Positions 1,837-17,530 are shown, numbered from the stretch's first letter. The stretch is 20,000 nt of DNA from an uncultured virus (IMG/VR IMGVR_UViG_3300016476_000523) (IMGVR_UViG_3300016476_000523:55588-75587); one strand, 5' to 3'. Program-made: numbers and translations. Notes: a model not told the origin generated them from the sequence alone.

Positions 1837-1842
1837 TAAATA
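1835..1842 (+). promoter_or_regulatory. Putative T4-like late promoter (AATAAATA)
   Basis: 7/8 match to the T4 late consensus TATAAATA, overlapping the stop of the previous gene and ending 26 nt upstream of the fibre ATG (1869). Confidence 0.5.
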
Positions 1843-1868: not shown

Positions 1869-4800
1869 ATGGCCAATACAGATAAAAACATTATAATAAC
1901 TCCTAACGTAGGACAAACAAATGATCCTAAGATAGAGTTTTCTGGTGCAAATGCCTCAGTAGGCGCACAAACAGTAACTCTTAATGTTTATCCTGATAAT
2001 AACGGTACGTTATCATGGGAAGGATCTGCTGGCCAGTTGTTTTCGATTACCAATGACTTGACTGGTACTATATTTTCTGTAAATGATGTATCGGGTATAC
2101 CTAGTCTAGAAATAAATGCTGATGGCAATATATCGATGGCTGAATTTAGTGGAAACGTTACTATAGGTAATGGTTCTCCCAACGCATTAGTCTTATTCGA
2201 TAGCTCAATACAAGTAGTTGCTACTGCGAATCTAGGTGATGTTTCTAATGTTAAAATTGGTGGCGGTACTTCAGGATACGTAGTAAGCACTGATGGTACG
2301 GGCAACTTGTCTTGGATACCATCTACATCAGGCCCGCAAGGTGAATCTGGTTATTCTGGTATTAGTGGATACTCTGGCTACTCAGGCACGAGTGGTTTCT
2401 CAGGTATCAGTGGTTTCTCAGGCATTTCGGGTTTCAGTGGTTTCTCGGGAACAAGTGGATTTAGTGGTTTCTCCGGTAGATCAGGATTCTCGGGCATCAG
2501 TGGATATTCTGGCTACTCAGGCACTAGTGGTTTCTCAGGTATCTCTGGATTCAGCGGCATTAGTGGCTACTCAGGCACGAATGGAACTAATGGCACAAGT
2601 GGTTTCTCAGGTATCAGTGGTTTCTCAGGCACTAGTGGTTTCTCAGGTATCTCTGGATTCAGCGGCATTAGTGGCTACTCAGGCACGAATGGAACTAATG
2701 GCACAAGTGGTTTCTCAGGTATCAGTGGTTTCTCAGGCATTTCGGGTTTTAGTGGTATTTCAGGTAGATCAGGATTCAGCGGCATTAGTGGCTACTCAGG
2801 AACAAATGGGACTACCGGCACAAGTGGTTTCTCAGGCATTTCGGGTTTTAGTGGTATTTCAGGTTTTAGCGGCATCAGTGGATACTCAGGCAGAAGTGGT
2901 TTCTCGGGTACAAATGGAACCAATGGTACTAGCGGTTTCTCGGGTATTTCTGGTTATTCAGGTATTTCTGGATACTCCGGACTAACAGGAGCAACGGGCC
3001 CTGCAGGGCCCGGAAGTTCAGCAGCATTTTCTTACTGCAACACGGACAACATTACATCATGCGCTCTAACTGATCATACTGCTATAACAACTGCAACTGA
3101 TAACTTCTTTGCAGGCACATGTTCAGGTAGATCGATTACTACTGGATCATACAATAATTTCTTTGGTACTCAGACAGGTGCATGTACTACTGAAGGATCA
3201 AATAACTTCTTTGCTGGTCAATGCACAGGATTCAACAACACTACCGGTGAGTCGAACACATTTATAGGCTGTCAAGCAGGATTCTGTAATACAACTGGTC
3301 GTCGCAACTTCTTTGCTGGATTGTGTGCTGGATTTCAAAATAGCCTCGGATGTCATAATACTTTTATAGGAAGTCAGGCAGGTTTCTGTAATACTACTGC
3401 ATCATTTAACATCTTTGCCGGACTATGTGCTGGTTATTGTAATCAAACCGGTCAGCATAATACCTTTTTTGGATGTGAAGCAGGGTACAACAACTCAACC
3501 GGCAATTACAACATATTCATAGGACTCAAGGCTGGTTATTGCAATACCACCGGGTCTCAGAATATATTCATTGGCAGACTGTCAGGATGCCGTACTACTA
3601 CAGGCAGTGACAATTTATTTTTCGGACAATCAGCAGGTGAAAGAACTACTACTGGTACTAATAATTTGTTCTTTGGTAGACGTGCCGGATTATATAATAC
3701 TACTGGTTCTAATAACATATTTTTTGGTTCTTGTGCAGGTGAATGTAATACTACTGGAGCACATAACGTATTCATAGGAAGAGAAGCAGGATGTAAAAAC
3801 GAAACAGGTACCTATAATTTCTTTGCAGGTATGTGTGCTGGATATAACAATACTACCGGCGCAGATAATATTTTTATTGGAAGATTTTCTGGATTCTGCA
3901 ACACGATAGGTACTAACAATTTCTTTGCCGGATGGTGTGCTGGATACAAAAATACCACTGGGGTAAGTAATACATTTATCGGTAGCTGGACTGGAGGCAA
4001 TAATAGCACGGGTTCATGGAATAACTTCTTAGGTCAAGAATCTGGATTCTGTCATACTACTGGTTGCCATAACAATTTCTTTGGATATCGCGCAGGCTAT
4101 TCAAACACTACTGGGTCCAATAATATTTACATAGGTTGCCAAGCAGGATTTTGTAGTACAATAGGATCAGATAACTTCTTTGCAGGCGATTGTGCCGGCT
4201 ATAAAAATACTACTGGTAATAATAACGTATTTATAGGCGATAGAGCGGGATTCTGTAATACAACTGGCGTGAATAACATTTTTATAGGTTCAGAAACAGG
4301 ATATTGTGCTACCACAGGTGTTAATAACTTCTTTGCTGGATTCTGTACTGGTAGATTTACGACCACTGGCACAAATAACAGTTTCTTTGGATGCCTTGCA
4401 GGTTACTGTAATACCACTGGTGCTAGAAATTTCTTTGCTGGTCTGTGTGCTGGATACAAGAATACGACTGGTGTAAACAATATTTTTATTGGTGATCGTG
4501 CTGGTTTCTGTAACACAACTGGTACTGATAATATCTTTATGGGTTGTCTAACTGGCGGATGTAGTACCACTGGCTCTCACAATTTCTTTGCAGGTGAGTG
4601 TAGTGGTTTTAGAAACACAACCGGTAGTTATAATACTTTTATCGGCGAGGCAGCTGGTTCATGTAATACAACAGGGGCACATAATTTTTATGCAGGACTA
4701 TGTGCTGGATTCTGTAATAACGGAAGCAGTAACATCATGATAGGGTGTAGAGCTGGTAGACTTAGTACTGGCGGCACTCAGAATATTTTTATGGGCACTA

Positions 4801-5636
4801 CTGCTGGTACATGTAATACCACTGGTTCTTATAATAACTTCTTTGGAGCTGCTGCAGGATTTAATAATACTACTGGATCACACAACACCTTTTTTGGATG
4901 TTCGGCTGGAATTTGTAACACTACTGGTTCATACAATACATTTATTGGGAAAGGAGCTGGAGTATGTAACACTACTGGAGCACATGGTTTCTTTGCTGGA
5001 TTATGTGCTGGTTACTGTAACACTACTGGTACAAACAACATATTCTTTGGATGTAATGCGGGTATTGCCGTTACTACTGGCATAAACAATATTATCATAG
5101 GGTCAGTTGCGGGTTCTGCTGGTTTAAGTGACACAGTAATCTTAGCTGCTGGTACAACTGAAAGATTGAAAGTAGACGGTACTGGGTTATCAATCAACGG
5201 ATCTTCGTTTGGGGTAGCAATTACTGATGATACATCTACAAACGCAACTAGATATCCTACGTTTATTAGTGCGACTAGCGGTACTATAACTGCTGAAAAC
5301 GTATCATCTACGAAGTTAACATTTAATCCAAGCACTGGTGAATTATCTGCTACAAACTTTAACTCATTGTCAGATATAAATACTAAAACAAATATTAGTA
5401 CATTAACAGACTCTATCACTAAACTTAAGCAGTTGCGTGGTGTAGATTTTAATTGGAAAGAAGACAACAGAAAGAGTATGGGTGTTATCGCTCAGGAATT
5501 AGAACAAGTATTCCCTGAACTAGTAACAACTTTACCTAACGGAACTAAAACTGTTACTTATAGTGGTTTGTTTGCTGTATTGATAGAAGCAATTAAAGAA
5601 CAACAAAAAGAAATCGAAGAATTAAAAAAACGCTAA
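1869..5636 (+). CDS. Long tail fibre/adhesin: collagen-like Gly-X-Ser region, Cys-rich 17-aa solenoid repeats and a C-terminal intramolecular chaperone (peptidase S74-like)
   Basis: 1255 aa. Gly-X-Y tract at 2331-3014 and xCNTTGxxNxFxGxxAG repeats at about 3090-5115. The C-terminus SDINTKTNI...LRGVDFNWK...MGVIAQELEQVFPELV...LIEAIKEQQKEIEELK matches the S74 auto-cleaving chaperone plus coiled coil of trimeric phage fibres. AAGGT SD-like motif upstream. Confidence 0.85.
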   Translation: MANTDKNIIITPNVGQTNDPKIEFSGANASVGAQTVTLNVYPDNNGTLSWEGSAGQLFSITNDLTGTIFSVNDVSGIPSLEINADGNISMAEFSGNVTIGNGSPNALVLFDSSIQVVATANLGDVSNVKIGGGTSGYVVSTDGTGNLSWIPSTSGPQGESGYSGISGYSGYSGTSGFSGISGFSGISGFSGFSGTSGFSGFSGRSGFSGISGYSGYSGTSGFSGISGFSGISGYSGTNGTNGTSGFSGISGFSGTSGFSGISGFSGISGYSGTNGTNGTSGFSGISGFSGISGFSGISGRSGFSGISGYSGTNGTTGTSGFSGISGFSGISGFSGISGYSGRSGFSGTNGTNGTSGFSGISGYSGISGYSGLTGATGPAGPGSSAAFSYCNTDNITSCALTDHTAITTATDNFFAGTCSGRSITTGSYNNFFGTQTGACTTEGSNNFFAGQCTGFNNTTGESNTFIGCQAGFCNTTGRRNFFAGLCAGFQNSLGCHNTFIGSQAGFCNTTASFNIFAGLCAGYCNQTGQHNTFFGCEAGYNNSTGNYNIFIGLKAGYCNTTGSQNIFIGRLSGCRTTTGSDNLFFGQSAGERTTTGTNNLFFGRRAGLYNTTGSNNIFFGSCAGECNTTGAHNVFIGREAGCKNETGTYNFFAGMCAGYNNTTGADNIFIGRFSGFCNTIGTNNFFAGWCAGYKNTTGVSNTFIGSWTGGNNSTGSWNNFLGQESGFCHTTGCHNNFFGYRAGYSNTTGSNNIYIGCQAGFCSTIGSDNFFAGDCAGYKNTTGNNNVFIGDRAGFCNTTGVNNIFIGSETGYCATTGVNNFFAGFCTGRFTTTGTNNSFFGCLAGYCNTTGARNFFAGLCAGYKNTTGVNNIFIGDRAGFCNTTGTDNIFMGCLTGGCSTTGSHNFFAGECSGFRNTTGSYNTFIGEAAGSCNTTGAHNFYAGLCAGFCNNGSSNIMIGCRAGRLSTGGTQNIFMGTTAGTCNTTGSYNNFFGAAAGFNNTTGSHNTFFGCSAGICNTTGSYNTFIGKGAGVCNTTGAHGFFAGLCAGYCNTTGTNNIFFGCNAGIAVTTGINNIIIGSVAGSAGLSDTVILAAGTTERLKVDGTGLSINGSSFGVAITDDTSTNATRYPTFISATSGTITAENVSSTKLTFNPSTGELSATNFNSLSDINTKTNISTLTDSITKLKQLRGVDFNWKEDNRKSMGVIAQELEQVFPELVTTLPNGTKTVTYSGLFAVLIEAIKEQQKEIEELKKR
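2331..3014 (+). repeat. Collagen-like (Gly-X-Y)76 coding repeat with a 9-bp period
   Basis: Uninterrupted triplets from GPQ to GPG, mostly GFS, GIS, GYS, GTS and GTN. Hand count: 76 triplets, 63 with Ser at Y. Confidence 0.9.
2516..2739 (+). repeat. Exact 108-bp tandem duplication (about 2.07 copies) inside the collagen-like tract
   Basis: 2516-2623 is identical to 2624-2731, and the match continues to 2739. The unit encodes 36 aa (SGTSGFSGISGFSGISGYSGTNGTNGTSGFSGISGF). Confidence 0.9.
3090..5115 (+). repeat. About 40 degenerate 17-aa (51-bp) coding repeats, predicted beta-roll/beta-helix
   Basis: Units such as FCNTTGRRNFFAGLCAG and YKNTTGVNNIFIGDRAG. Hand count: 40 units, one internal unit of 16 aa, about 45 Cys. 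Confidence 0.85.
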
Positions 5637-5657
5637 TAGTTCAAAAGGAGAACGAAG

Positions 5658-7406
5658 ATGGCAATAAAAATAGCAGGAGATACTGTCATTGATGACAGTA
5701 AAAATTGGTTAGGTAATCCTATACCATCATTAGGTAGCGGAGGCGCTACAGTTACAGGTTCAGTAACACTTACTTCTTCTAGTGATGGCATGCAATCTGT
5801 CACTACAACCGCTTATGGACAGTCTGTGACATTACCTGACGCAACAACACTTTCCGAAGGAGTATCAGTATTTGCTATAGCAAATCGCGGATCATTTCCC
5901 TTATTAATAAAAAATAATTCTGGTACATTATTGGGCTACGTGCCTATTGCTAGCTATGTTCAGTGTAGTTTAGCAGACAAATCAACATCAGCTGGTGTAT
6001 GGGATTTGTTTGGGGAAACCCCATACGGACCGGATGCAGGAGGCACAATAACATTTGGTACTGGAAACAGTGTTGTTAATAGAGTGGTTGCTGTAACGCT
6101 TGATACTAATAGAGTGGTTCTATTAGCAGGCGGCCCGTCTGCGCTTCAGGCAATAGTATATGATTCAAGTACACAAACATTCGGGTCTTCTGCTCTAGTA
6201 AGAACAGCAAACGTAGAAAATAGGTTTAGTGCCATTAAGTCAGATACGGATAGAGTGTTAGTTTTTAGTTGTGACGCATCAAATGGGTCACAAGCGGTTG
6301 TACTATCTATAAGCGGTAGCTCAATCACAGTTAATACTCCAGTGTCATCGTCCTTAACAGGAGATTGTTCGTCTATAGGAGACGGATCAGTAAATGGAGC
6401 GAACATGGTTCAAATAGGAACTTCTTTTATTGTTTCATATAACGATTCAGTTAACGATCGAGGAAGAGTGAGAGCAATAACAATCAGTGGCACTACCCCA
6501 ACATTTGGAGGTGAAACCACGCCTAGTGCAACTAAAGCGTCATCCTTGCCGATCGTTTATGATGTTGATGGTTCGGTTTGTTTAGTTTTCTCCACTAACG
6601 GAACTACTATATATGTTACCCCGTATACGGTATCTGGAAGTACCATGACAGTGGGAACAGATGCGTCCATTGCATCCGATTCCGAACCATACTTAGTAAC
6701 TAGAGTAGGGAGTAGATGGGCAGTACTTTATAATTATCCAGGCGTTAATCAGTTTAGAGGTGCAATAGTGAGTGTTTCAAGCACAACTGCGTCAGTGAGT
6801 ACTGTCCAACTTGGATCTGTCGCAGCAGAGAATAGATTATGTATGAAAGTAAACGGTAGTAATGTAATTTGTGTTGCGGATACCGGCAGCGGTGGTAATG
6901 CATATTTAAATGTTTTGACTGATACTTCTGGTACCGCTTCAGCTGGTACAGGAATTACTCTCCCGATAGGAAGTGGTGGATCACAAATTGGTGCATATGG
7001 ATATGCGTCTGACGGTATTTATTATACAGCACCTGCAGCAAGTGATCGATTCACTAGTTTTAAACTAGGTAATTCAGGGGCACAGCCGACAGCTACTGCA
7101 CTAAACACATACGGTTATGTTAGTAGTAGTTTAGCTATTCCTGTTATAAACACACTAGGTAGTAATATGAGCACTGGTGTTACTGTATTATTATCTGGTC
7201 AAAATTCATATAGAATTACTAATCTTACTACTGTGTTTGATTCACTAGCCGGCTACTTAGTACCGTCTGTATATCAATGGCAAGAGGTAAACACCAACTC
7301 TACGGCGGTCGCATCAACGACTGAAAATCAGAAATGGGTTTGTAGGAACGCAAAGGGCACTCCCTCAGATAGAGTATATACATTCATAAGATACACGGCG
7401 GTATAA
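5658..7406 (+). CDS. Putative virion/tail-associated protein, Ser/Thr/Gly/Val-rich, possibly beta-propeller
   Basis: AAGGAG SD at 5645-5650. 582 aa. Recurrent blade-like motifs about 50-60 aa apart (LSISGSSITVNT, ITISGTTPTFGG, YTVSGSTMTVGT, VSVSSTTASVST). Lies directly after the fibre gene. Confidence 0.55.
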   Translation: MAIKIAGDTVIDDSKNWLGNPIPSLGSGGATVTGSVTLTSSSDGMQSVTTTAYGQSVTLPDATTLSEGVSVFAIANRGSFPLLIKNNSGTLLGYVPIASYVQCSLADKSTSAGVWDLFGETPYGPDAGGTITFGTGNSVVNRVVAVTLDTNRVVLLAGGPSALQAIVYDSSTQTFGSSALVRTANVENRFSAIKSDTDRVLVFSCDASNGSQAVVLSISGSSITVNTPVSSSLTGDCSSIGDGSVNGANMVQIGTSFIVSYNDSVNDRGRVRAITISGTTPTFGGETTPSATKASSLPIVYDVDGSVCLVFSTNGTTIYVTPYTVSGSTMTVGTDASIASDSEPYLVTRVGSRWAVLYNYPGVNQFRGAIVSVSSTTASVSTVQLGSVAAENRLCMKVNGSNVICVADTGSGGNAYLNVLTDTSGTASAGTGITLPIGSGGSQIGAYGYASDGIYYTAPAASDRFTSFKLGNSGAQPTATALNTYGYVSSSLAIPVINTLGSNMSTGVTVLLSGQNSYRITNLTTVFDSLAGYLVPSVYQWQEVNTNSTAVASTTENQKWVCRNAKGTPSDRVYTFIRYTAV

Positions 7407-7408
7407 TC

Positions 7409-7861
7409 ATGAAAAAACTAACAACAAATGTAGGCGTATTCGGTCCATTCTATTCAATTGAAGTTCTCGAAGACAGATACCACTGTGACAATGCTGATTT
7501 CCACTACACTGTGGTGGGAACAGGAGTAATCAGTGATGTGGAGGAAGGAGATTTCCCTCCACCATCCCCACCGGTGCGACCTCCTGAGGAAATTCAAGCA
7601 GAAGTAATCGCGGAAACTCAAAAGCGACTTGACGATTTCGCAAGAACGAGAAACTATGATGGTATTTTAAGTCTGTGTACTTATGCTACTTCTACTAATG
7701 TGAAATTTCAAACAGAAGGTCAATATGGAGTTGAAGCAAGAGACAATACTTGGGCAACACTATATGAAATTCTTGATGAAGTACAAAGTGGAACAAGACC
7801 TATGCCATCTAGTTACGCAGATATAGAATCAGAACTACCAGTACTATCGTGGCCTAATTAA
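7409..7861 (+). CDS. Putative tail fibre assembly/accessory protein
   Basis: 150 aa. Pro-rich linker (FPPPSPPVRPPE) followed by QKRLDDFARTRNYDGILSLCTYATS...ELPVLSWP, a pattern I associate with small proteins encoded right after phage fibre genes. Confidence 0.55.
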   Translation: MKKLTTNVGVFGPFYSIEVLEDRYHCDNADFHYTVVGTGVISDVEEGDFPPPSPPVRPPEEIQAEVIAETQKRLDDFARTRNYDGILSLCTYATSTNVKFQTEGQYGVEARDNTWATLYEILDEVQSGTRPMPSSYADIESELPVLSWPN

Positions 7862-7883
7862 TTCATCTCGACTTGGTTAGGCT

Positions 7884-7891
7884 ACTAAATA
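7884..7891 (+). promoter_or_regulatory. Putative late promoter (ACTAAATA) giving a near-leaderless transcript
   Basis: TAAATA at 7886-7891, in the intergenic gap, ends 5 nt before ATG7897. No SD is present. Confidence 0.45.
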
Positions 7892-7896
7892 TCAAT

Positions 7897-8529
7897 ATGA
7901 AAAAAGTACTGATAGCTACGCCATGCCTCGACCAAAAAGTAGACGCATATTATGTTCACAGTTTATGTGAATCAATCAAACTTGGTAAAGAACATGACTT
8001 TGATATAAATGTTGTGTTCTTGGCCAACGAAAGTATTTTGCCAATGGCAAGAAACGAACTATTTAATTTAGCATATCACCAAAGTTACGATATCATGGTG
8101 TTTATTGATGACGATGAATATTGGGATGCTAAAGCACTTGTTGAGATATTATTGTCTGAACGCAGTGTAGTTACTATTCCAGTAGTAAACAAAACTGATA
8201 AACAAACAAAGTTTAATGTTGATCTTGAAAGTAAAAACATAGATGCTTATGGATACGCACAAGCCAAAACAACAGGAACTGGATTCTTAAAAATCACACG
8301 CGAAGTTTTTACAAAACTATGGGAATCGAATCCAGAACTTGAGTTTAGAGGCAAAAAACTAAAGAATATTTGTGAATATACTATGAGTAACGGCAGCTTT
8401 GTAGGTGAAGATATCACACTGTCTAAAAAGATCACTGAACTTGGTTACAAAATTTGGGTATACACTAATCACACTGTATCACACATTGGTAACAAAATGT
8501 ACGTGGGTGATTTTACAAAAACACTATGA
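7897..8529 (+). CDS. GT-A fold (GT2-like) glycosyltransferase
   Basis: Start reassigned from TTG7873 to ATG7897 (MKKVLIATP). Motifs ARN.L, VFIDDD (DxD), GTGFLKI.R.VF, GEDI and H.G. Confidence 0.8.
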   Translation: MKKVLIATPCLDQKVDAYYVHSLCESIKLGKEHDFDINVVFLANESILPMARNELFNLAYHQSYDIMVFIDDDEYWDAKALVEILLSERSVVTIPVVNKTDKQTKFNVDLESKNIDAYGYAQAKTTGTGFLKITREVFTKLWESNPELEFRGKKLKNICEYTMSNGSFVGEDITLSKKITELGYKIWVYTNHTVSHIGNKMYVGDFTKTL

Positions 8530-9788
8530 TTGATATCGTTATTCCTACAATGTGGAAAGCATCCAATGTTGCTGAAAACATTGCAGGCTATGTTCAATCA
8601 CCCTACGTCAACAAAGTTATCATTATCGATAATAACAAACAACAAAGACCGCAGCATGAAATATTCAATCACGCAAAAGTTGAATTAGTATGCTATAACA
8701 AAAACATTTATGTTAATCCAGCTTGGAACGAAGGTTACAAGCGTTCAACACAATTAATTATTGGAATAATCAACGACGATATTATAATATCAAATGATAT
8801 ATTTGAATTGATTGCTCACACTGATTTTACTGACATAGACATTATAGGTGTAAATTTACGATCAGGTAAAGACAACTATACTATTGGTGATTTTAATAAC
8901 ACAGACAAGATCGTAAAATTAAACTATGACAAAACTAAACCAATTGGCGGTCAAGCTTGGGCCTTTGGTATTTGTATGTTTATCAAACGCGAGTCATATC
9001 ATGAGATACCCAGCCTTTATCAAATTTGGTACGGTGATGATTACTTAGTTCAACATGTTGATAATGTGTATGTGTTAATGACAAACAAGATAAAAGGTGT
9101 AATATCAAAAACCTTAGTTGAACTAGAACACAATCAAGAAATACTCAAGCGCATCGAATTAGATTCTACTAACGCATACAACTATGATCATTTTATCAAT
9201 GGTAAGAATTGGGACATACTTAAACACAAGATGACGAAAACAATAGATATTTTTGAATCAGAGTATCAAAAAGCCAGAACCACTACCAGCGACATAAACC
9301 AAAATGTTCATATATTGTACGAACTAGCAAAGGAGTGTGATCATATAACAGAAATGGGTGTAAGAACTGGTGTAAGTACACGCGCATTTTTAAATACCCG
9401 TTCTACTTTAATTTCATATGATATTGTGTTAAATTCAAATGTACAGCAGTTGTTTAATTACGCAAAAGCACAGGGCAAAGATGTACAGTACATAAAAGCA
9501 GACGTTTTGCAGATCACAATTGACCCAACTGATTTACTATTCATCGACACGTATCATGTCTATGGGCAACTAAAAAAAGAATTGGAACTGCACGCCAGCA
9601 AAGCAAGAAAGTATATTGCGTTTCATGATACATATACCTTTGGACTAACGGGCGAAAATAACAACGATAAAAATGGACTGTTAACAGCAATTATAGAATT
9701 CTTGATCGAAAACCCACATTGGCAGTTTAAGTTTCATACCAATAGAAATAATGGGTTGACTGTGCTTGAACGTAAATACACATCATAA
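8526..9788 (+). CDS. GT2 glycosyltransferase fused to a class I SAM methyltransferase (Methyltransf_24-like)
   Basis: N-terminal half: IVIPT, IIIDN, NPAWN.G, INDDI, YGDD. C-terminal half: EMGVRTGVST, DLLFIDTYH, IAFHDT, NNGLTVL. ATGA overlap with the upstream gene. Confidence 0.8.
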   Translation: MIDIVIPTMWKASNVAENIAGYVQSPYVNKVIIIDNNKQQRPQHEIFNHAKVELVCYNKNIYVNPAWNEGYKRSTQLIIGIINDDIIISNDIFELIAHTDFTDIDIIGVNLRSGKDNYTIGDFNNTDKIVKLNYDKTKPIGGQAWAFGICMFIKRESYHEIPSLYQIWYGDDYLVQHVDNVYVLMTNKIKGVISKTLVELEHNQEILKRIELDSTNAYNYDHFINGKNWDILKHKMTKTIDIFESEYQKARTTTSDINQNVHILYELAKECDHITEMGVRTGVSTRAFLNTRSTLISYDIVLNSNVQQLFNYAKAQGKDVQYIKADVLQITIDPTDLLFIDTYHVYGQLKKELELHASKARKYIAFHDTYTFGLTGENNNDKNGLLTAIIEFLIENPHWQFKFHTNRNNGLTVLERKYTS

Positions 9789-9800
9789 CCAGGAAACAAA

Positions 9801-10703: not shown

Positions 10704-10706
10704 ATT

Positions 10707-11675
10707 ATGAAAGATATTATTAAAGAAGTTATCAGAGAAGAACTATTAAAGACGCAACAAAAAGCATATTATTTTATGGCAGGATTGCCCAGATCAGGTA
10801 GCACTCTATTGTCTGCTATCTTAAATCAGAATCCCCGAATCCATTCAGGTCCAAGTTCCCCTGTTACAAGCATTATGCTTACTCTAGAAGACGCTATTGC
10901 AAATGACGAGTTGTTTAGAGCATATCCTAAGCCACAACAAGCAGGTGAAATCATTGCAAATGTAATTAAGCATTATTACAGCGATGTTGATAAGCCTGTT
11001 ATCATCGACAAGAACCGATCTTGGGTAAACAGAATGCATTACATTCCTGGTTACTTTGGTATAGAGCCAAAGATTATTTGTCCAGTAAGAAACATTGATG
11101 AAATCTTGGCTTCATTTATTGCTATGCACAAACGCAATCCTGTTGACGCCAATGGTAGAATCAATTTTATTGATGAAATGCTAGTAAAAACAAACACACC
11201 TCTTACCGACGACAATCGCTGTGAATTTTTAGCTAGCCCTAATGGCATCTTGGGACAAAGTGTAGCTGGTATCAGACAAGCATTAATGGAAGGTAGACAA
11301 AGACAAATTCACTTTGTAGAGTATGACGACTTGATTAATCACCCACAAGAAACTATGCGAAAGCTTTATGACTTCTTGGGTGAAGAATATTTCGAGCACG
11401 ATTTTACTAACTTAGTAAATCAACACAAAGAAGATGATAGCAGTGTGTATGGATTTGCTGATATGCACGATGTAAGAGAAACACTAGAAAAGAAATCAAT
11501 CGACCCAAGAGAGATTTTATCGCCTGCTATTTTAGAAAGATGTGTTGGTTCTGAATTCTGGCGAAACTTGGAAGATTATGAAATGTCTGATTCTAATGAA
11601 CAAGGGTTCGTCGCCGCACAACAAACTACTTCTCCAGAAGAAAACACTAATCCAACTACTATTATAGGAGCATAA
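10707..11675 (+). CDS. PAPS-dependent sulfotransferase (Sulfotransfer_3-like)
   Basis: 5'-PSB loop GLPRSGSTLL..IL.QNP, DKNRSW, 3'-PB motif VRNIDEILASF, and VEYDDL...P.ETMRKLYDFLG. Confidence 0.85.
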   Translation: MKDIIKEVIREELLKTQQKAYYFMAGLPRSGSTLLSAILNQNPRIHSGPSSPVTSIMLTLEDAIANDELFRAYPKPQQAGEIIANVIKHYYSDVDKPVIIDKNRSWVNRMHYIPGYFGIEPKIICPVRNIDEILASFIAMHKRNPVDANGRINFIDEMLVKTNTPLTDDNRCEFLASPNGILGQSVAGIRQALMEGRQRQIHFVEYDDLINHPQETMRKLYDFLGEEYFEHDFTNLVNQHKEDDSSVYGFADMHDVRETLEKKSIDPREILSPAILERCVGSEFWRNLEDYEMSDSNEQGFVAAQQTTSPEENTNPTTIIGA

Positions 11676-11677
11676 AA

Positions 11678-11935
11678 ATGAGCATGACACAAGAAGAGAT
11701 TCAAGGAACAATTAGAGCAGCTAGAGATTCCGTATGGGTAGTTAATGACAGTCTAGAAAAACTAACCAACGGTGCAGAACCAACAGACGAAATCAGAAGT
11801 AACATTGACCGCAATGTATCGCATCTTAAACTGGTAGTAGGTAATCCTGAAATTACAAACTCAAGTGAAGACATTAGTGATCTTTATCAAGCAATCACTG
11901 CGGGCGAAGCTAAACTAGCAGAACTCAATCAGTAA
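11678..11935 (+). CDS. Small acidic, probably helical hypothetical protein
   Basis: 85-aa ORF that fills the gap between two genes exactly. AGGAG SD about 7 nt upstream. Confidence 0.7.
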   Translation: MSMTQEEIQGTIRAARDSVWVVNDSLEKLTNGAEPTDEIRSNIDRNVSHLKLVVGNPEITNSSEDISDLYQAITAGEAKLAELNQ

Positions 11936-11945
11936 TTATTATTGA

Positions 11946-12839
11946 ATGAATATACTTTTAATAGGTGGTAATGGTTACATCGGATCAAAGTTTTACCACT
12001 TGTATAAGAATGAGCATACAATAACATCTATTGATTTGTGTTTGTTTCATAGCAATCTTGGGTATTCAACTGAGATAAACTATAATGAAATTGACATTGA
12101 TCAATACGATGTTATTGTATGTTTAGCAGGACATAGCAGTGTACCAATGTGTGAGTATTCTCCTAAAAATTCGTGGCAGAATAATGTAACCTATTTCCAC
12201 AACTTGTGTAGTAAAATAACAAATCAAAAACTTATCTATGCATCAAGTGCAAGCGTATACGGTAAGACTGTTGGTATTTCAACCGAAAGTTCTGATATTA
12301 ACTTTAATGTTATAAACCATTATGACCTTCAAAAAATTACGATAGACTTGATTGCAAATAAGTATATCAATGAAGGAAAAAACATAATTGGATTGCGGTT
12401 TGGTACAGTAAACGGCGCATCAATAAACGCTAGAAGTGACTTAATGATTAATTCAATGGTTAAGTCGGCTATTGAAACTAATCAAGTACACGCAAAAAAC
12501 CTACATATTCGCAGGGCGATACTAGGTATAAACGATGCGTGTAGAGCTATAGCCAAGATCGCAACTACTAATATAAATCCTGGACAATATAACTTAGCAT
12601 CTTTTAACTCAACAGTGGGTGATATAGCAAATACTGTTTGTAATATACTAGGGGCAGAACTAGTAACGCATCCAGATGATTTATTCGTTTATGATTTTGA
12701 GTTGGATACAAGCCAATTCACGAACAGTACCGGTTTCTTATTTACTGACACAATACCCTCGTTGATTGAGGAGCTTAAAACAAATTATAATGGTATCAAT
12801 TTTGAAACAAGAACACACGACAAACGATTTACTATATAA
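11946..12839 (+). CDS. NAD-dependent epimerase/dehydratase (extended SDR)
   Basis: GGNGYIGS Rossmann motif, YASSASVYG, catalytic YDLQK (YxxxK), LRFGTVNG. Confidence 0.85.
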   Translation: MNILLIGGNGYIGSKFYHLYKNEHTITSIDLCLFHSNLGYSTEINYNEIDIDQYDVIVCLAGHSSVPMCEYSPKNSWQNNVTYFHNLCSKITNQKLIYASSASVYGKTVGISTESSDINFNVINHYDLQKITIDLIANKYINEGKNIIGLRFGTVNGASINARSDLMINSMVKSAIETNQVHAKNLHIRRAILGINDACRAIAKIATTNINPGQYNLASFNSTVGDIANTVCNILGAELVTHPDDLFVYDFELDTSQFTNSTGFLFTDTIPSLIEELKTNYNGINFETRTHDKRFTI

Positions 12840-14019
12840 AGAATTACTGCAATGCTTGTGTTGCGGTAGCGATGAACTAACAACAGTCTTAGATTTAAAA
12901 AATCAGCCATTGGCAAACTCATATGTAAAAGATAAAGATAGCATAGAAGAGTATTTCCCGTTAGCATTAAATTATTGCGCGGATTGTACACATCTACAGC
13001 TCACACATGCAGTCAATCCAGACTTATTATTCAAAAATTATCTGTATGTTAGTGGTACTACTCAGACCTTGCGCGACTACTTTGATTATTTTGTAAAAAT
13101 TACAGAAAGGTATTTTGAAAAGAAACAATTATCAGTGTTAGATATTGCATGTAATGACGGATCTCAACTAGACTCTTACAAGAAGTCTAATCACATTACT
13201 TATGGTATTGATCCTGCTACTAACTTATACGAGCTAAGTAGTAAGAATCATAAGGTTGTATGTGACTATTTTACGGAAGATTCGGTGTTAAAACTAAATG
13301 CTAAGTTTGATATGATAGTAGCCCAAAATGTATTTGCACATAATTCATACCCTAAAGAGTTTTTAGAAGTTTGTAAGAGTTATTTGAATGACACTGGAAA
13401 AATATTTATACAAACCAGTCAAGCAAATATGGTTGAGTATGGACAGTTTGATACGATATATCACGAGCATATTTCATTTTTTAATTTAAACTCTATGGCT
13501 ACATTAGCTAAGCGATCAAGTTTATATTTACATGATACATTCAAAACAGATATTCACGGAACTAGTTATGTCTTTGTTTTAACTGATGACCCAGCACTAG
13601 ACAGAACTAATGAGTTATTGTCTACTGAAAAGTTACAAACACTTGAGATAGTAAACAGATTTGCGTCCTTATCACTTAAAGTAGTTGATGATTTAAAAAA
13701 CGAGTTGGCTAAACACAAAGATTCATTAATAATTGGTTATGGGGCAGCAGCCAAAGGTAATACATTGTTAAATTTTGGTGAAATAGACTTAGACTATATA
13801 ATTGACGACAATCCTTTAAAGCAAAATTTATATACACCGGGTAAAAAGATAAAAATTATTTCACTAGATGAAGTAGAAAAATTGGGAAGTAAACCTATAA
13901 TATATGTACCGTTATCTTGGAACTTTTTTACCGAAATAAAAACCAGAGTAAAAAACAAGTATCCAGGACCTGCAACATTTATTAAATATTTTCCCTCTTT
14001 AGAGATAATCAAAGAATGA
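12790..14019 (+). CDS. NDP-hexose C-methyltransferase family protein (Zn-binding N-domain, SAM domain, C-terminal domain)
   Basis: CLCCGS...QPLANSY...CADCTHLQL zinc site, LDIACNDG, QNVFAH, YHEHISFF, HGTS, GYGAAAKGNTLLN, DDNPLKQ. The start is uncertain (TTG12766, ATG12790 or near 12817). Confidence 0.85.
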   Translation: MVSILKQEHTTNDLLYKELLQCLCCGSDELTTVLDLKNQPLANSYVKDKDSIEEYFPLALNYCADCTHLQLTHAVNPDLLFKNYLYVSGTTQTLRDYFDYFVKITERYFEKKQLSVLDIACNDGSQLDSYKKSNHITYGIDPATNLYELSSKNHKVVCDYFTEDSVLKLNAKFDMIVAQNVFAHNSYPKEFLEVCKSYLNDTGKIFIQTSQANMVEYGQFDTIYHEHISFFNLNSMATLAKRSSLYLHDTFKTDIHGTSYVFVLTDDPALDRTNELLSTEKLQTLEIVNRFASLSLKVVDDLKNELAKHKDSLIIGYGAAAKGNTLLNFGEIDLDYIIDDNPLKQNLYTPGKKIKIISLDEVEKLGSKPIIYVPLSWNFFTEIKTRVKNKYPGPATFIKYFPSLEIIKE

Positions 14020-14765
14020 GAACAGTCCTAACGCATTTCTATAACGAAGAGTATTTGTTACCCATATGGCTAGAACACCATAAGAAAATATTTGACTTTG
14101 GTATATTAATTGACTACAATAGTACAGACCGTAGTGTAGAAATATGTAAAAGTATATGTCCTCATTGGCAAGTTTTTCCATCTATGAATGAATACTTTGA
14201 AGCACATTCAAACGATTCGGAGATAGAATTTTATGAGAGACAGTTGCCGGGCTATAGAATCGCATTGACTACTACTGAATTCTTAGTCGGAGATTTGGAT
14301 AAGTTAACATTAGACACTAGAGCTAGAGTTCAGTGGTATATACCAGGAATTAGATTTACTGAATGGGATCCAGATGGATCATTAGATACTAGCAAGCCCT
14401 TATGGGAACAACTGCGTAATGGAATTGATTACAGAAAAGATGTAACTGCTAATCAGTGTAGAAGTTATCATAATTTTAATGATATAAAATACACAACAGG
14501 TAGACACTATCTTCCGTATAACACAGAAGATTGTTTGATTTTCCATTATTCACATTGTATCGTAGGAAAACCAATGCTAGATCGCAGACTACAAATTCAA
14601 ACTAGAATAGGGCAAGGCGACAAAGATAAAGGGTTAGGATCACATCATTATGTTGATAGTGATGGGTTGACTATCGAAAAACTTGAACAAATGCAAAAGA
14701 CATGGTTAAGTGTCGATTCAGAAGATTTGTCTGAGATTATCGATATGATAGTTAAAAATAAATGA
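14016..14765 (+). CDS. GT2-like glycosyltransferase (Glyco_tranf_2_4-like) with a degenerate DxD
   Basis: HFYNEEYLLPIWLEHH...ILIDYNSTDRS N-terminus, GRH, IFHY. LTTTEFL stands where LDxDEF is expected. Confidence 0.7.
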   Translation: MRTVLTHFYNEEYLLPIWLEHHKKIFDFGILIDYNSTDRSVEICKSICPHWQVFPSMNEYFEAHSNDSEIEFYERQLPGYRIALTTTEFLVGDLDKLTLDTRARVQWYIPGIRFTEWDPDGSLDTSKPLWEQLRNGIDYRKDVTANQCRSYHNFNDIKYTTGRHYLPYNTEDCLIFHYSHCIVGKPMLDRRLQIQTRIGQGDKDKGLGSHHYVDSDGLTIEKLEQMQKTWLSVDSEDLSEIIDMIVKNK

Positions 14766-14772
14766 GTAAAAT

Positions 14773-16071
14773 ATGAAATATAGTATAGTAATACCAACTT
14801 ACAATCATTGCGATGATTTGTTAAAACCCTGCATAGAAAGTATTTTTAAATATACTAATATGCGTGATGTAGAACTTGTTATCAGCGCCAATGGGTGTAA
14901 GGATAATACCAAAGAATACTTAAACGGTCTACAAGATAAATTTAAGGAAATTGGTTTTGAAGAAAATTTAAAAGTAGTGTGGCATGATGATCCTCTTGGA
15001 TACTCACGAGCAACAAATGCAGGTATTCAAAAAGCTACTACTGATTATATTGTGTTGTTAAACAATGACACTGTGCTTTTGCCTCAATATAAAGACCTTT
15101 GGCTAGATATGCTCACTACGCCTTTTATGAAAAATACAAGATGTGGTATAAGCTGTGTTATAAAAGGCCCAAGTGAACCTGCTGGTAAAGATTTTGCTAT
15201 ATTCTTTTGTGTAATGATCCATCGAAAAGTTTTCAACAAGATAGGTTTATTGAACGAAGAGTATGGTGTAGGAGGCGGCGAAGATACCGAGTTCTGTATT
15301 GAAGCTGAACGAGCTGGTTTTGAAGTATGTCAGTGTATGGATATCAACTGGTCAGAAAAGTCTAGTATGTACACTGGTAGCTTTCCTATATACCATAAAG
15401 GTGAAGGAACGATGCATGATTCCAATTTAGTTCCAGAATGGAATGATATCTTTTTGGCCAACTCACTCAAGCTTGCTAAAAAGTATAACTACGAGTGGTA
15501 TCGATGGAGATTGAGTAATTATTGGGAACGCGCGGTGTTTTTACAAGGCGATCCTGTATTCCCTAGAGAGACTACTAGATATGAATGGGCTTCCGAGAAT
15601 CTATTAGGAACTAAGTTGTTTGAACTTGGTTGTAGTTCTGGTTATGGTGTGCAATTTTTCCCTGAAAATATCGACTATACTGGATTAGACTACGACAAAT
15701 TTATTATTCAAGCAGCTAAAGAACAAGATTGGAAACGTAAGACTTCTTTCATAAATGCTGACATTAATACATATGAACTAGATCAGTATGATACGATTGT
15801 TGCATTTGAAGTTATTGAACACTTGGATAATGGGTTAGAAGTTGTGGAAAAACTAAAACAACATTGTAAACGTCTAATCATATCAGTGCCTATGTTGGAG
15901 CCTCCGGGTTTCTGGGGTCCTCATCATAAACTGCATATGCTCGATGAATCTTTCTTTCCTGGATTTAAATTCAAGTATATCAACGAAGCAGGTGCATTAT
16001 TAGACGAACCAGAAAACAGAGGCGATTTAAAAACTATAAATCTAATGTTATGTATTTGGGACAAAGAGTAA
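14773..16071 (+). CDS. GT2 glycosyltransferase fused to a class I SAM methyltransferase
   Basis: N-terminal half: YSIVIPTYN, GYSRATNAG, VLLNNDT, GGEDTEF, YHKG. C-terminal half: RYEWA, ELGCSSGYG, GLD, FEVIEHL, ISVP. Confidence 0.85.
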   Translation: MKYSIVIPTYNHCDDLLKPCIESIFKYTNMRDVELVISANGCKDNTKEYLNGLQDKFKEIGFEENLKVVWHDDPLGYSRATNAGIQKATTDYIVLLNNDTVLLPQYKDLWLDMLTTPFMKNTRCGISCVIKGPSEPAGKDFAIFFCVMIHRKVFNKIGLLNEEYGVGGGEDTEFCIEAERAGFEVCQCMDINWSEKSSMYTGSFPIYHKGEGTMHDSNLVPEWNDIFLANSLKLAKKYNYEWYRWRLSNYWERAVFLQGDPVFPRETTRYEWASENLLGTKLFELGCSSGYGVQFFPENIDYTGLDYDKFIIQAAKEQDWKRKTSFINADINTYELDQYDTIVAFEVIEHLDNGLEVVEKLKQHCKRLIISVPMLEPPGFWGPHHKLHMLDESFFPGFKFKYINEAGALLDEPENRGDLKTINLMLCIWDKE

Positions 16072-16074
16072 CAA

Positions 16075-17061
16075 ATGAAAAAGATATTCTGTTCAATTTC
16101 GACCAAAGGCAGATATCACACATTCTTGCCTATAGCAATTCAAGCTATTATAAATCAAACTAGAAAAGTTGATTTACTTGTTATTTACGATGACAACACT
16201 GAACCAGAAGATGTTCGTAAATTTCCTGTATATCAACAACTGTTTAGATTAATGGATTTAAAAGGTATCAAGTGGGAGTGGCAGTTCGCTCAAAAGAAAG
16301 GTCAACACTATAATCATCAGATGGCAAACGAACGCGCCGCTAGAGAAGGATATGATTATGTATGGCGTGTAGACGATGATAACATGCCAGAGCCCCAAGT
16401 TCTAGAAAAACTAGAAGAAGCTATGTACTTACATCCAACTGCTGCCGCAGTGGGCGGAGCCATACTAACGCCTGAATGGGACACTACTCCAAGAAGCGCA
16501 ACAGGTAAAATAGAAGACATTGATCGAGAACCTAATATCCAATGGGGCTATATTAGAAAAGTAAAACAAGTAGAACATTTACACTGTTCGTTCTTGTATA
16601 AAGCAGGTATATATGACTATAATCTAGCTCTTTCTAAAGTAGCACACAGAGAAGAAACTTTATTCACCTATGGTTTACATAAATTGGGCTACGATCTTTT
16701 TGTTATCCCATACGCAACTACATGGCATTTTAAGTCAGAAGGTGGTATCAGAACTACAAACAACAAAGATTTATACGACCATGACGAATACATCTTTAGA
16801 AACTTTTTAGAGCATAAGGATAAAACAATCGTAGTACTAGACTGTGGTATGGGTGATCATATTGTTTTCAAACATGTGTTGCCTTCGATTAAGAACCCCA
16901 TAGTATATTCATGCTACCCTGATATCGTACCTGGTAAGAGCATACAAGAAGCTAAGAACACATTTGGCGATATTGATCATTGGAACATTTATAAAAAGAT
17001 GGATCAGTGGCAATGGAAAGAAAGTTTAGAAAAAGCATTTAGAAATTTGTACAGAGTTTAA
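16075..17061 (+). CDS. GT2-like glycosyltransferase with a C-terminal GT9-like N-lobe fragment
   Basis: VIYDD, WRVDDD (DxD), HREET, WH....GGIR. The last ~85 aa begin TIVVLDCGMGDHIVFKHVLP, which resembles a GT9 N-terminus (GxGD). Confidence 0.75.
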   Translation: MKKIFCSISTKGRYHTFLPIAIQAIINQTRKVDLLVIYDDNTEPEDVRKFPVYQQLFRLMDLKGIKWEWQFAQKKGQHYNHQMANERAAREGYDYVWRVDDDNMPEPQVLEKLEEAMYLHPTAAAVGGAILTPEWDTTPRSATGKIEDIDREPNIQWGYIRKVKQVEHLHCSFLYKAGIYDYNLALSKVAHREETLFTYGLHKLGYDLFVIPYATTWHFKSEGGIRTTNNKDLYDHDEYIFRNFLEHKDKTIVVLDCGMGDHIVFKHVLPSIKNPIVYSCYPDIVPGKSIQEAKNTFGDIDHWNIYKKMDQWQWKESLEKAFRNLYRV

Positions 17062-17065
17062 AGTT

Positions 17066-17524
17066 ATGATTATTATTTCTCCATATGCACAAAAACTTAG
17101 AAATGGTAAAATCAATCCAAAGAACTATCCATATTGGCAAGAGTTAGTAGAACAACTGTACAAGAACAAATATGAAGTAGTCCAAGTTGGTGTAGAAGGT
17201 GAAGATCAACTAGTACCAGATTTTAGAAAAAACTTACCATTAGCTGAACTAGCAAAATTAGTAAATGAATGCGATACTTGGATATCAGTTGATAGTTTCT
17301 TTCAGCATTTTTGTTGGGACTTAAAAAAGCCTGGCATTGTATTGTGGGCGCAATCTAATCCCGAAATATTCGGACACCCAGAAAATATAAACTTACTAAA
17401 AGACAAGAAATATTTAAGACCATATCAGTTTCATTTATGGGAACAGTGTGACTATAACAAAGAAGCTTTCGTGGAGCCCGATCAAGTGATAAAGTATATA
17501 CACGATCTTTTAAAAGATAAGTAG
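17066..17524 (+). CDS. GT9-like C-terminal (donor-binding) lobe encoded as a stand-alone protein
   Basis: IIISPYA.......PKNYPYWQELV..L......VVQVG, L.LAELAKLVNECDTWISVDSFFQH......KPGIVLW....P..FG. Confidence 0.75.
   Translation: MIIISPYAQKLRNGKINPKNYPYWQELVEQLYKNKYEVVQVGVEGEDQLVPDFRKNLPLAELAKLVNECDTWISVDSFFQHFCWDLKKPGIVLWAQSNPEIFGHPENINLLKDKKYLRPYQFHLWEQCDYNKEAFVEPDQVIKYIHDLLKDK
17517..17523 (+). promoter_or_regulatory. Possible late-promoter variant (ATAAGTA)
   Basis: TAAGTA at 17518-17523 ends 7 nt before ATG17531, with no SD. Same geometry as the motif before 7897. Confidence 0.3.
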
Positions 17525-17530
17525 TATACC

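Follow-up and report, generated by a model that had tools for sequence, protein, structure and literature searches.

What is the acceptor of a set of glycan enzymes that a phage encodes behind its own collagen-like tail fibre? This question is raised by a stretch of 20,000 nucleotides from an uncultured virus (IMGVR_UViG_3300016476_000523, positions 55588-75587), which was analysed at its full length and is called the window below. The fibre encoded here contains a tract of 76 uninterrupted Gly-X-Y triplets (residues 155-382) in which Y is Ser 63 times, exactly the number of Gly-X-Ser triplets that a first-pass annotation of the window had reported, Asn 7 times and Thr 3 times. Position X is mainly occupied by Phe, Ile, Thr and Tyr and just 3 times by Pro, and 11 triplets read Gly-Tyr-Ser. 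Further downstream, 11 co-oriented open reading frames (ORFs) fill positions 7873-17524, each separated from the next by no more than 12 nt or overlapping it, and no intrinsic terminator lies between them on the + strand; a tightly packed 11-gene cluster had been annotated there. Module A (7873-11935) comprises a GT-A glycosyltransferase (GT), a GT2-methyltransferase, a GT9-like GT-B enzyme, a sulfotransferase, and an 85-aa protein, while Module B (14773-17524) comprises a GT2-methyltransferase, a GT2 enzyme, and a GT9-like half-domain; the genes between them are referred to as the variable middle. The best-supported reading of the comparisons presented below is that Module B acts on the Gly-X-Ser tracts of virion fibres. 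It also seems probable, judging from gene content and gene neighbourhoods, that the locus provides a cytoplasmic, lipid-carrier-independent, phage-encoded O-glycosylation of the phage's own virion fibres.

Module B accompanies serine-type collagen tracts

In a forward test, viral contigs were selected by a degenerate DNA pattern that encodes a row of eight Gly-[FIY-like]-[Ser-like] triplets, and the enzymes were not used in this selection. The flanks of 78 loci from 66 distinct contigs were then scored for Module B within 10 kb. Module B genes were present in 36 of the 66 contigs (28 had all three genes, 7 had two, and 1 had a single gene), with homologues that were typically 55-65% identical, and the contiguous trio mostly abutted the collagen gene, with a gap of ≤35 nt in most contigs. 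The 30 contigs without Module B consisted of 12 with Gly-Tyr/Phe-Thr tracts, 5 with no or a very short tract, and 13 with a true Ser-type tract; restricted to true Ser-type tracts, Module B was thus found in 36/49 contigs. None of the 12 Gly-Tyr/Phe-Thr contigs caught by the same pattern carried any Module B gene, and a separate control scan with a Gly-X-[Thr/Ala/Pro] pattern (79 loci, 71 contigs) returned homologues of the 16075 or 17066 genes in 0/71 contigs and a weak 25% match to the 14773 gene in one. Fisher's exact test for 36/66 against 0/71 gave p = 4e-15, without correction for relatedness. This split between Ser and Thr suggests that Module B is linked to the repeat and not to a receptor-binding domain.

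The reciprocal test, in which the GT2 gene at 16075-17061 served as the query, was in agreement with this: a Gly-X-Ser ORF was present in 58 of 74 loci, and the usual distance from GT2 to collagen gene was 435 nt, roughly the space taken up by the small GT9-like gene downstream of GT2. The 16 loci lacking such an ORF include the six closest relatives of the window, plus short or truncated loci. In these six relatives the trio is followed by a 147-aa ORF and then ribonucleotide reductase, the same order as in the window. The co-occurrence expected in the first-pass annotation between Gly-X-Ser fibres and GT genes therefore proved strong for the three genes at 14773-17524, and it did not extend to the remainder of the cluster, where Module A tracks another repeat and the middle genes were found in no relative examined.

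Ser-collagen and Module B are carried together by phages of various types, which differ in their capsid and replication modules: phages with Phage_capsid_4/Mu-gpT-type capsids, one of them with an SU10 adaptor (L045, L056), a YqaJ/Sak phage (L249), a large RecA/ClpP phage (L074), and T4-like phages including the source phage. At 90% identity the 38 GT2 homologues fell into 30 clusters, at 70% into 11. The family is essentially restricted to phages, with 4 loci among 185,579 species genomes, all four on contigs of metagenome-assembled genomes, and a single hit among 50,697 GenBank phage records. That record, Methylophilaceae phage P19250A, is the sole cultured Module B carrier found. Its genome encodes a 1201-aa ORF (KX815270.1 21390-24995; L394:7753-11358) with 281 collagen triplets, of which 225 are Gly-X-Ser, directly followed by methyltransferase, GT2, and GT9C genes that are annotated as hypothetical. 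The label "tail length tape-measure protein" on this Ser-collagen ORF is probably a mis-annotation.

Among the contigs examined, six giant-virus contigs of metagenome-assembled origin (GVMAG; L038, L046, L047, L064, L076, L096) carried Module B in no case; five of them have long Gly-Tyr/Phe-Thr tracts, and L076 has just a 9-triplet stretch without Thr.

Module A follows a second fibre repeat

The shaft of the same fibre consists of about 40 copies of a 17-residue repeat containing the sequence NTTG. With the sulfotransferase as bait we retrieved 26 viral loci. In about a dozen of them all five Module A genes are found side by side (50-80% identity), and the genes from 11946 on recur in one close relative only. 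No homologue of the epimerase, the C-methyltransferase, or the ORF at 14016-14765 was found beside either module in relatives. The two modules occur independently: beside Module A, Module B was present in the closest relatives only, and most Module B loci are without Module A. In relatives, Module A lies downstream of fibre genes and upstream of a gp13/14 neck-gp15-terminase-sheath-tube-portal block; one such relative has heme oxygenase and bilin reductase, which are cyanophage-type genes. A search for the NTTG repeat gave 15 loci on 14 contigs, and Module A stood immediately downstream of the last such fibre in 9/14, the remaining 5/14 contigs ending too early to judge. The possibility that an HMW1C-type enzyme N-glycosylates the NTT sequons was considered and dropped, as Pfam and NCBIfam returned no GT41-like protein in the window.

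An APS-kinase/KTI12-like P-loop protein often follows the sulfotransferase module in relatives (L013:11261-12118, L017:11241-12113, L021:4628-5494) and also stands beside Module B in an unrelated phage type (L045:1356-2198), which suggests a phage-encoded supply of the sulfate donor; within the 75.6-kb source fragment this gene has no counterpart. Related glycan cassettes adjoining collagen-like genes further contain 2-oxoglutarate-Fe(II) oxygenases of the prolyl-hydroxylase type and DUF6445 proteins (L013:12115-12822; L045:38-664; L009:8547-10457), and these might hydroxylate the fibre.

Enzymes encoded by the cluster

The features of the window are collected in Table 1. For the family assignments we used Pfam, PHROGs, and NCBIfam profiles, and AlphaFold2 (AF2) models combined with Foldseek where profiles gave little. 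Most of the enzymes named in the first-pass annotation were confirmed, namely two GT9-like units (9801-10703 by fold, 17066-17524 by Pfam), two GT-fused methyltransferases (8526-9788 via its homologues, and 14773-16071), the sugar C-methyltransferase, the short-chain dehydrogenase/reductase (SDR) epimerase, and the sulfotransferase. Of the five GT-A domains claimed, four are supported; for the fifth, at 14016-14765, we found a sub-threshold match only. The "two more tail genes" between fibre and cluster were not confirmed: the ORFs at 5658-7406 and 7409-7861 match no Pfam, PHROG, or NCBIfam family, fall into virus-only Atlas clusters with scores ≤0.82, and have no homologue beside Module A in relatives.

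Table 1. Features of the 20,000-nt window (positions in the window; SAM, S-adenosylmethionine; PAPS, 3'-phosphoadenosine-5'-phosphosulfate)
Feature	Position	Strand	Basis
C-terminal end of 879-aa Gly-X-Ser collagen-like protein	1-436 (genome 53384-56023)	+	Pfam Collagen 2e-66
Two LamG/pentraxin-like paralogues (437-1141, 1141-1836)	437-1836	+	Laminin_G_3 1.8e-13, 8.2e-17; Pentaxin 8.1e-17; PHROG 8510 "virion structural protein"
T4-type late-promoter-like motif AATAAATA	1835-1842	+	34 nt before fibre start
Tail fibre, 1255 aa	1869-5636	+	Pfam, PHROGs tail-fibre families, repeat counts
Proline-poor collagen tract, 76 triplets, candidate O-glycosylation acceptor	2331-3014 (residues 155-382)	+	Triplet count
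17-residue repeat xNxFxGxxAGxxNTTGx, ~40 copies, 20 exact NTTG	3087-5078 (residues ~407-1070)	+	Repeat analysis; homologous to fibres beside Module A elsewhere
Peptidase_S74 intramolecular chaperone domain	5370-5528 (residues 1168-1220)	+	Pfam 4.4e-15
Two ORFs, 582 aa (5658-7406) and 150 aa (7409-7861), system membership uncertain	5658-7861	+	No family match
Module A gene 1: GT-A fold glycosyltransferase, DDD motif; likely start ATG at 7897	7873-8529	+	AF2 and Foldseek
Module A gene 2: GT2-like domain fused to Methyltransf_24-like domain	8526-9788	+	Methyltransf_24 4.6e-4; GT2 via homologues
Module A gene 3: GT9-like GT-B glycosyltransferase	9801-10703	+	AF2 pLDDT 71.7 and Foldseek
Module A gene 4: PAPS-type sulfotransferase	10707-11675	+	Sulfotransfer_3 1.8e-17, Sulfotransfer_1 1.2e-12, PHROG 27463 1.6e-83
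Module A gene 5: conserved 85-aa protein	11678-11935	+	Homologues, 50-80% identical, directly after sulfotransferase in 15 loci
Variable middle: extended SDR nucleotide-sugar epimerase/reductase	11946-12839	+	Epimerase 6.8e-21
Variable middle: NDP-hexose 3-C-methyltransferase, TylC3/TcaB9 type; likelier start ATG 12790	12766-14019	+	Methyltransf_13, Methyltransf_23, Methyltransf_14
Variable middle: possible GT-A, weak	14016-14765	+	Glyco_tranf_2_4 6.4e-4, under Pfam cut-off
Module B gene 1: GT2 fused to class I SAM methyltransferase	14773-16071	+	Glycos_transf_2 1.4e-18, Methyltransf_12 2.3e-10
Module B gene 2: GT2 with C-terminal tail like start of GT9-like N-domain	16075-17061	+	Glycos_transf_2 7.8e-6; 26.4 bits vs cut-off 23.3
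Module B gene 3: separate 152-aa GT9-like C-terminal (donor-binding) Rossmann domain	17066-17524	+	Glyco_transf_9 7.2e-7; 29.2 bits vs cut-off 22
147-aa ORF, membership uncertain	17531-17974	+	Homologues only in closest relatives

The GT2-methyltransferase of Module B has relatives in some phages that consist of the methyltransferase half alone. The next two genes appear to encode a second GT9-like enzyme that is split between the tail of the GT2 protein (about the last 80 residues, a weak match) and the 152-aa protein, as judged from alignments: residues 251-291 of the 16075-17061 product match positions 5-51 of the 9801 family, with a BLASTP value of 0.007 and an hhalign E of 4e-4 (34% probability), and the 17066-17524 product aligns to the C-domain of that family with 97.4% hhalign probability. 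The latter protein also matches NCBIfam heptosyltransferase I (4.7e-5) and, by BLASTP, 9801-10703 (3e-12). This two-gene arrangement of GT2 and small GT9-like gene was kept in 15/15 listed relatives, usually with a 4-nt overlap. The 17066-17524 gene and the 147-aa ORF share one frame, with a TAG stop and two codons between them (window 17066-17974), and a close relative shows the identical in-frame arrangement (L008:7394-8302). In this relative the large subunit of ribonucleotide reductase is represented by two ORFs (297 and 449 aa, with a 91-nt gap; L008:8299-10633), and in the window it is a single frame.

The first Module A protein was modelled with a pLDDT of 82.3 and a pTM of 0.83, has invariant D79 and D81, and has homologues that are 62-68% identical in 8 loci. 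Its Foldseek matches were STIV A197 (2.9e-9), COLGALT1, LH3, mimivirus R699, Mnn9, and ppGalNAc-Ts. The resemblance of the model to protein-glycosylating GT-A enzymes may serve as a lead only, with TM-scores of 0.5-0.6 and other matches that include Mnn9 and sugar-nucleotide pyrophosphorylases. We found no relation between the 7873 and 8526 families with hhalign, nor between 7873-8529 and 14016-14765 with BLASTP. Homologues of 8526-9788 match Glycos_transf_2 at 2.2e-5 and 1.1e-5, and in some relatives the GT half is present alone. For 9801-10703, the leading folds were the GT9 protein 3tov (2.3e-8), WaaF (1psw, 9.5e-8), and WaaC, with TibC (4rb4) in ninth place (E 2.3e-5, TM-score 0.57); after this fold search we rejected a ParA/MinD-like ATPase, which the GGIGK motif had made a candidate. 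Profile searches of PDB sequences with three Module A families gave marginal matches only (E 0.07-0.4), those of the 9801 family being WaaC and WaaF only (E ~0.35), and single-sequence PDB searches with 9801-10703, 16075-17061, and 14016-14765 gave nothing usable, including no PDB sequence match for the last of these.

The sulfotransferase exceeds the Sulfotransfer_3 cut-off (64.8 bits against 27). Its best NCBIfam match is the carbohydrate sulfotransferase NoeE (1.3e-10, far under that model's cut-off), and its PDB matches, TPST1/2, are confined to the PAPS loop. The best solved relative of the C-methyltransferase is D-mycarose 3-C-methyltransferase (4rv9, 1.8e-45 over residues 27-394), followed by TcaB9 (4e-31).

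In keeping with the first-pass annotation, no membrane component was detected. The highest 19-residue Kyte-Doolittle mean among the 11 cluster genes was 1.41, with no transmembrane segment. Pfam and NCBIfam searches of the window proteins returned no flippase, polymerase, transporter, or lipid-carrier enzyme, and specifically no Wzx, Wzy, WaaL, GtrA/B/C, or polyprenyl-phosphate transferase; the absence of lipid-carrier enzymes covers the 75.6-kb fragment, which is 22% of the genome.

Source phage, fibre and promoter signals

The window is the final 20 kb of a linear viral record of 75,587 bases with an estimated completeness of 22%, so the full genome is likely several hundred kb in size. Outside the window, the fragment codes for virion proteins of T4 type (Gp23 capsid 2.9e-98, Gp20 portal 3.1e-105, gp25, gp53, a prohead protease, and a T4 baseplate protein), and its capsid protein shares 65-68% identity with the counterparts in the jumbo phages Vibrio phage 2.275.O, Pseudomonas phage PA5oct, Sinorhizobium phage Phosso, and Escherichia phage A4. 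The source phage is a jumbo T4-like myovirus. When the full window was searched for near-identical DNA among GenBank phages, nothing matched.

The 1255-aa fibre is laid out as an N-terminal region, the collagen tract (Pfam Collagen 1.3e-32), the 17-residue repeats, and a self-cleaving Peptidase_S74 chaperone at its C-terminus. Three further proteins with Gly-[Phe/Ile/Tyr]-Ser tracts are encoded upstream on the fragment, one of which has an Mtd_N domain. One of the three is the 879-aa protein that ends in the window at 436; it has one collagen tract of 63 triplets, 52 of them with Ser at Y, and a second of 86 triplets, where Ser occupies Y in 78. The LamG/pentraxin-like pair that follows, probably virion proteins, sits between two Ser-collagen fibre genes. 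Its members are 31% identical to each other and could possibly be lectin-like fibre tips or decorations. Upstream of the window, adjoining baseplate genes, lies an ORF of 5740 aa (G000:C1:361-17583, - strand; L002), whose sole Pfam match is one FG-GAP repeat (1.8e-7) and which may be a giant virion or fibre protein. A QueC-like protein (7e-10) is encoded amid head genes (G000:C1:44461-45183, +; L004:10462-11184) and hints at 7-deazaguanine DNA modification in the source phage.

With respect to transcription, the first-pass annotation had pointed to a late-promoter-like motif before the cluster, an argument that we rejected, since relatives have a promoter of the sigma-70 kind in front of Module A. 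The motif there, ACTAAATA, matches TATAAATA at 6 of 8 positions; in the window TATAAATA occurs 4 times against 3.4 expected and ATAAATA 6 times against 10.8 expected. One copy of TATAAATA lies 43 nt before the sulfotransferase gene. Sigma-70-like sites were found 71 times against 74.9 expected, and terminator-like sites 10 times against 8.7 expected. A near-consensus sigma-70-like promoter precedes the 7873-8529 homologue by about 30-60 nt in L009, L010, L013, L014, L017, and L018, and positions 7866-7893 of the window hold a degenerate remnant of it (TCGACT ... TATCAA). At the fibre gene itself a T4-type late-promoter-like motif is present (Table 1), and in the source genome NATAAATA stands before further virion genes as well, among them those for the portal and the gp25-like protein.

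What do the enzymes act on?

The sequence features, the folds, the absence of membrane components, and the genetic linkage across phages are direct results; beyond these, we infer the fibre as acceptor, the modified residue, the sugars, and the order of steps as follows. The Gly-X-Ser tracts would fold as proline-free collagen triple helices in which the side chain at Y points outward, giving a regular array of serine hydroxyls. Module B, with its GT9-like enzyme apparently divided over the GT2-protein tail and the 152-aa protein, would attach and extend a short sugar chain on these serines and O-methylate it. For Module A the probable target is also the fibre, either in the tract used by Module B or elsewhere, with the NTTG-repeat shaft as a candidate, and sulfate would be placed on sugar or tyrosine. 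The SDR and the TylC3-type 3-C-methyltransferase might supply a branched methyl sugar. Likely benefits would be stabilisation of the proline-free triple helix, protection against proteases, or adhesion. Thus, of the earlier proposal that soluble enzymes glycosylate fibre or capsid, comparative genomics supports the fibre and nothing supports the capsid. That all eleven genes make one methylated, sulfated glycan would go further than the co-occurrence, which is limited to three genes, Module A following the NTTG repeat.

A number of observations weigh against glycosylation of the fibre. The forward and reciprocal samples share some contigs and are not fully independent, and in the window itself Module B is not adjacent to a collagen gene, as it lies 9.1 kb past the end of the fibre gene. 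Thirteen of the 49 Ser-type contigs lack Module B in the flanks examined (10 of the 13 have <3 kb on one side). When five negatives were searched whole, one (61% complete) had the GT2 gene 43 kb from the collagen gene, and in the other four, fragments that are 18-30% complete, it was not found. Outside their repeats, the collagen proteins linked to the trio are mosaics and frequently related to one another, with 134/178 in one single-linkage cluster, so that the linkage may partly reflect a travelling cassette instead of enzyme-substrate coupling; the corresponding parts of the source genome's Ser-collagen proteins match few others. As to Module A, fibres of the NTTG type (33-43% identity) are also encoded by small Pelagibacter, Roseobacter, OM43, and Achromobacter phages in culture, and the GT9-like gene of the module was present in only 1 of 50,697 GenBank records. 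On these grounds a two-way dependence of Module A and NTTG repeat was rejected, and since NTTG fibres exist without Module A, the link between the two may be lineage synteny. The lack of transmembrane segments is compatible with host glycolipid acceptors, because GT2 and GT9 enzymes of the lipopolysaccharide (LPS) pathway are themselves soluble or peripheral. Finally, the promoter before Module A in 6/14 relatives (TTGACA-N17-TATAAT/TATACT/TATAGT) is of the early type, which is usual for host-directed genes; chlorovirus glycosyltransferase genes are early as well.

Several of these points would fit a remodelling of the host surface, in which the enzymes alter LPS core or O-antigen, capsule, or S-layer glycan by means of host lipid carriers and flippases, for instance to block superinfection or to avoid trapping of progeny, and in which fibre and receptor-modifying genes travel as a cassette. 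In P22-like phages, tailspike genes indeed adjoin O-antigen-modifying genes. Heptosyltransferases of LPS synthesis are the GT9 relatives of 9801-10703, related cassettes contain GT25 and further families of LPS type, and the early-type promoters and the NTTG fibres lacking Module A point the same way. Host remodelling is also the customary reading of GT/epimerase clusters in cyanophages in the available text of PMC12801897. We nevertheless consider it unlikely here, because Module B tracks the chemistry of the stalk repeat and not a receptor-binding domain, the linkage spans phage types whose hosts presumably differ, cellular genomes hardly contain the GT2 family, and the membrane proteins and polyprenyl-phosphate transferases of such pathways were missing from the window. 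A further alternative is that the cluster serves two targets. Module B might act on Ser-collagen with Module A and the middle genes directed at host glycans, another virion protein, or fibre tyrosines, outside any single pathway. The independent occurrence of the modules in relatives, the middle genes unique to the source phage, the Gly-Tyr-Ser triplets in the collagen tract, and the protein-tyrosine sulfotransferases that are the best solved relatives of the sulfotransferase (in the PAPS loop only) are consistent with such a division. Against it stand the co-oriented packing of all eleven genes, the NoeE-type match, and two loci of an unrelated phage type (L045, L071) where a sulfotransferase and an APS-kinase-like gene join Module B and Ser-collagen; we regard it as quite improbable.

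Neither sugar 3-C-methylation nor sulfation is a known decoration of DNA, which speaks against GTs that decorate modified phage DNA bases as in T4 and other phages. The cluster contains no hydroxymethylase, base-modifying gene, or DNA-binding domain by Pfam and NCBIfam, and hypermodification would leave the linkage with a Gly-X-Ser protein repeat unexplained. Phage GTs are often so read (PMC12619734 and PMC12801897, in the portions available), and the QueC-like gene on the fragment makes some DNA modification likely, yet as the function of this cluster it is very improbable indeed.

Implications

If phages of many lineages do modify their Ser-collagen fibres with soluble glycosylating enzymes of their own, virion glycosylation would be widespread in aquatic phages and not peculiar to mycobacteriophages and giant viruses, and proline-free collagen triple helices would gain a biological stabilising or shielding partner. 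Fibre glycans would then matter for host recognition, for particle stability, and for the reading of marine-phage "LPS genes" as auxiliary metabolic genes, and a compact three-gene, lipid-independent O-glycosylation of Gly-X-Ser could be used in glyco-engineering. In annotation, the case of P19250A shows a Ser-collagen fibre carrying a tape-measure label next to enzymes listed as hypothetical proteins. A further possibility, which we think unlikely, is that the fibre combines two repeat scaffolds with a dedicated module each, Module B for the Gly-X-Ser helix and Module A for the NTTG beta-repeat shaft. In that case the sugars of Module B would replace the stabilising role of hydroxyproline in animal collagen, and the GT9-like enzyme and sulfotransferase of Module A would decorate the shaft in the manner of autotransporter heptosylation. 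A sulfated glycoprotein fibre of this kind would be the first sulfated virion component of a bacterial virus and would give phage sulfotransferases a role.

Comparison with known systems

BclA glycans of the Bacillus exosporium carry methylated sugars. The closest tested analogue of Module B and Ser-collagen is the SgtA/BclA3 pair of Clostridioides difficile, where SgtA, encoded immediately upstream of bclA3, places O-GlcNAc on Thr of the collagen repeats and also accepts Ser, according to the available part of PMC7157674. Both cases pair a collagen-like Gly-X-[Thr/Ser] surface fibre with a soluble GT gene; in relatives of our locus this gene adjoins the collagen gene (gap mostly ≤35 nt), and in the window it lies 9.1 kb from the end of the fibre gene. 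They differ in that the putative carrier is a virion fibre of a phage where C. difficile has a spore protein, and that Gly-[Phe/Ile/Tyr]-Ser takes the place of Gly-Pro-Thr in the repeat. The enzymes, moreover, form a trio of GT2-methyltransferase, GT2, and GT9-like proteins that is confined to phages, and the Gly-X-Thr collagens of phages lack this trio.

Chloroviruses and mimivirus modify their own structural proteins in the cytoplasm with virus-encoded soluble GTs, without host lipid-linked pathways, and chlorovirus A064R has GT domains fused to a methyltransferase. We know of no sulfotransferase that is part of the glycosylation systems of mycobacteriophages, chloroviruses, or mimivirus. 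Glycosylation of mycobacteriophage virions was described by Freeman et al. 2023, as cited in the available text of PMC12619734 and PMC12801897. Self-encoded soluble GTs acting on own structural proteins are common to these systems and, as predicted from its genes, to the present one. The acceptors there are capsid and tail-tube C-termini or capsid and fibrils, whereas the candidate here is a collagen-like stalk, and the enzyme families differ. In the TibC/Aah systems (autotransporter heptosyltransferases, BAHT), which Module A resembles in gene arrangement, a GT9-type GT-B gene adjoins that of a repeat-rich, beta-structured adhesin, and the enzyme glycosylates Ser/Thr of this adhesin in the cytoplasm; TibC 4rb4 is among the fold matches of 9801-10703. 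However, LPS-type GT9 enzymes outrank TibC, the second GT9-like unit appears split over two proteins, and among NCBIfam matches at E ≤ 0.01 the BAHT model had none in the window (17066-17524 matched only heptosyltransferase I and RfaC, 9801-10703 nothing).

The cyanophages S-SCSM1, S-SCSM2R, P-SSM2, and S-SRM01, which are large, marine, and T4-like, also have clusters in which GTs and nucleotide-sugar epimerases are joined by a sulfotransferase, and in S-SRM01 the tail-fibre genes are followed by a TPR protein, sulfotransferase, GT, and epimerase. The portions available of PMC12801897 read such clusters as host-surface modification, without tests. The open-access literature yielded no description of Gly-X-Ser phage collagens linked to glycosyltransferases, nor of sulfated phage virions, and the function of phage sulfotransferases is called unclear in the accessible part of PMC10580990, so that our reading proposes a testable role for them. 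Unlike O-antigen and seroconversion loci, the window lacks their membrane components, and unlike in the cyanophage clusters, part of the cluster described here is statistically tied to a fibre repeat. Altogether, we contribute a three-gene module with Ser/Thr-specific controls, a sulfotransferase-bearing module tied to a second fibre repeat, the presence of both modules and both repeats in one jumbo phage, and a cultured carrier.

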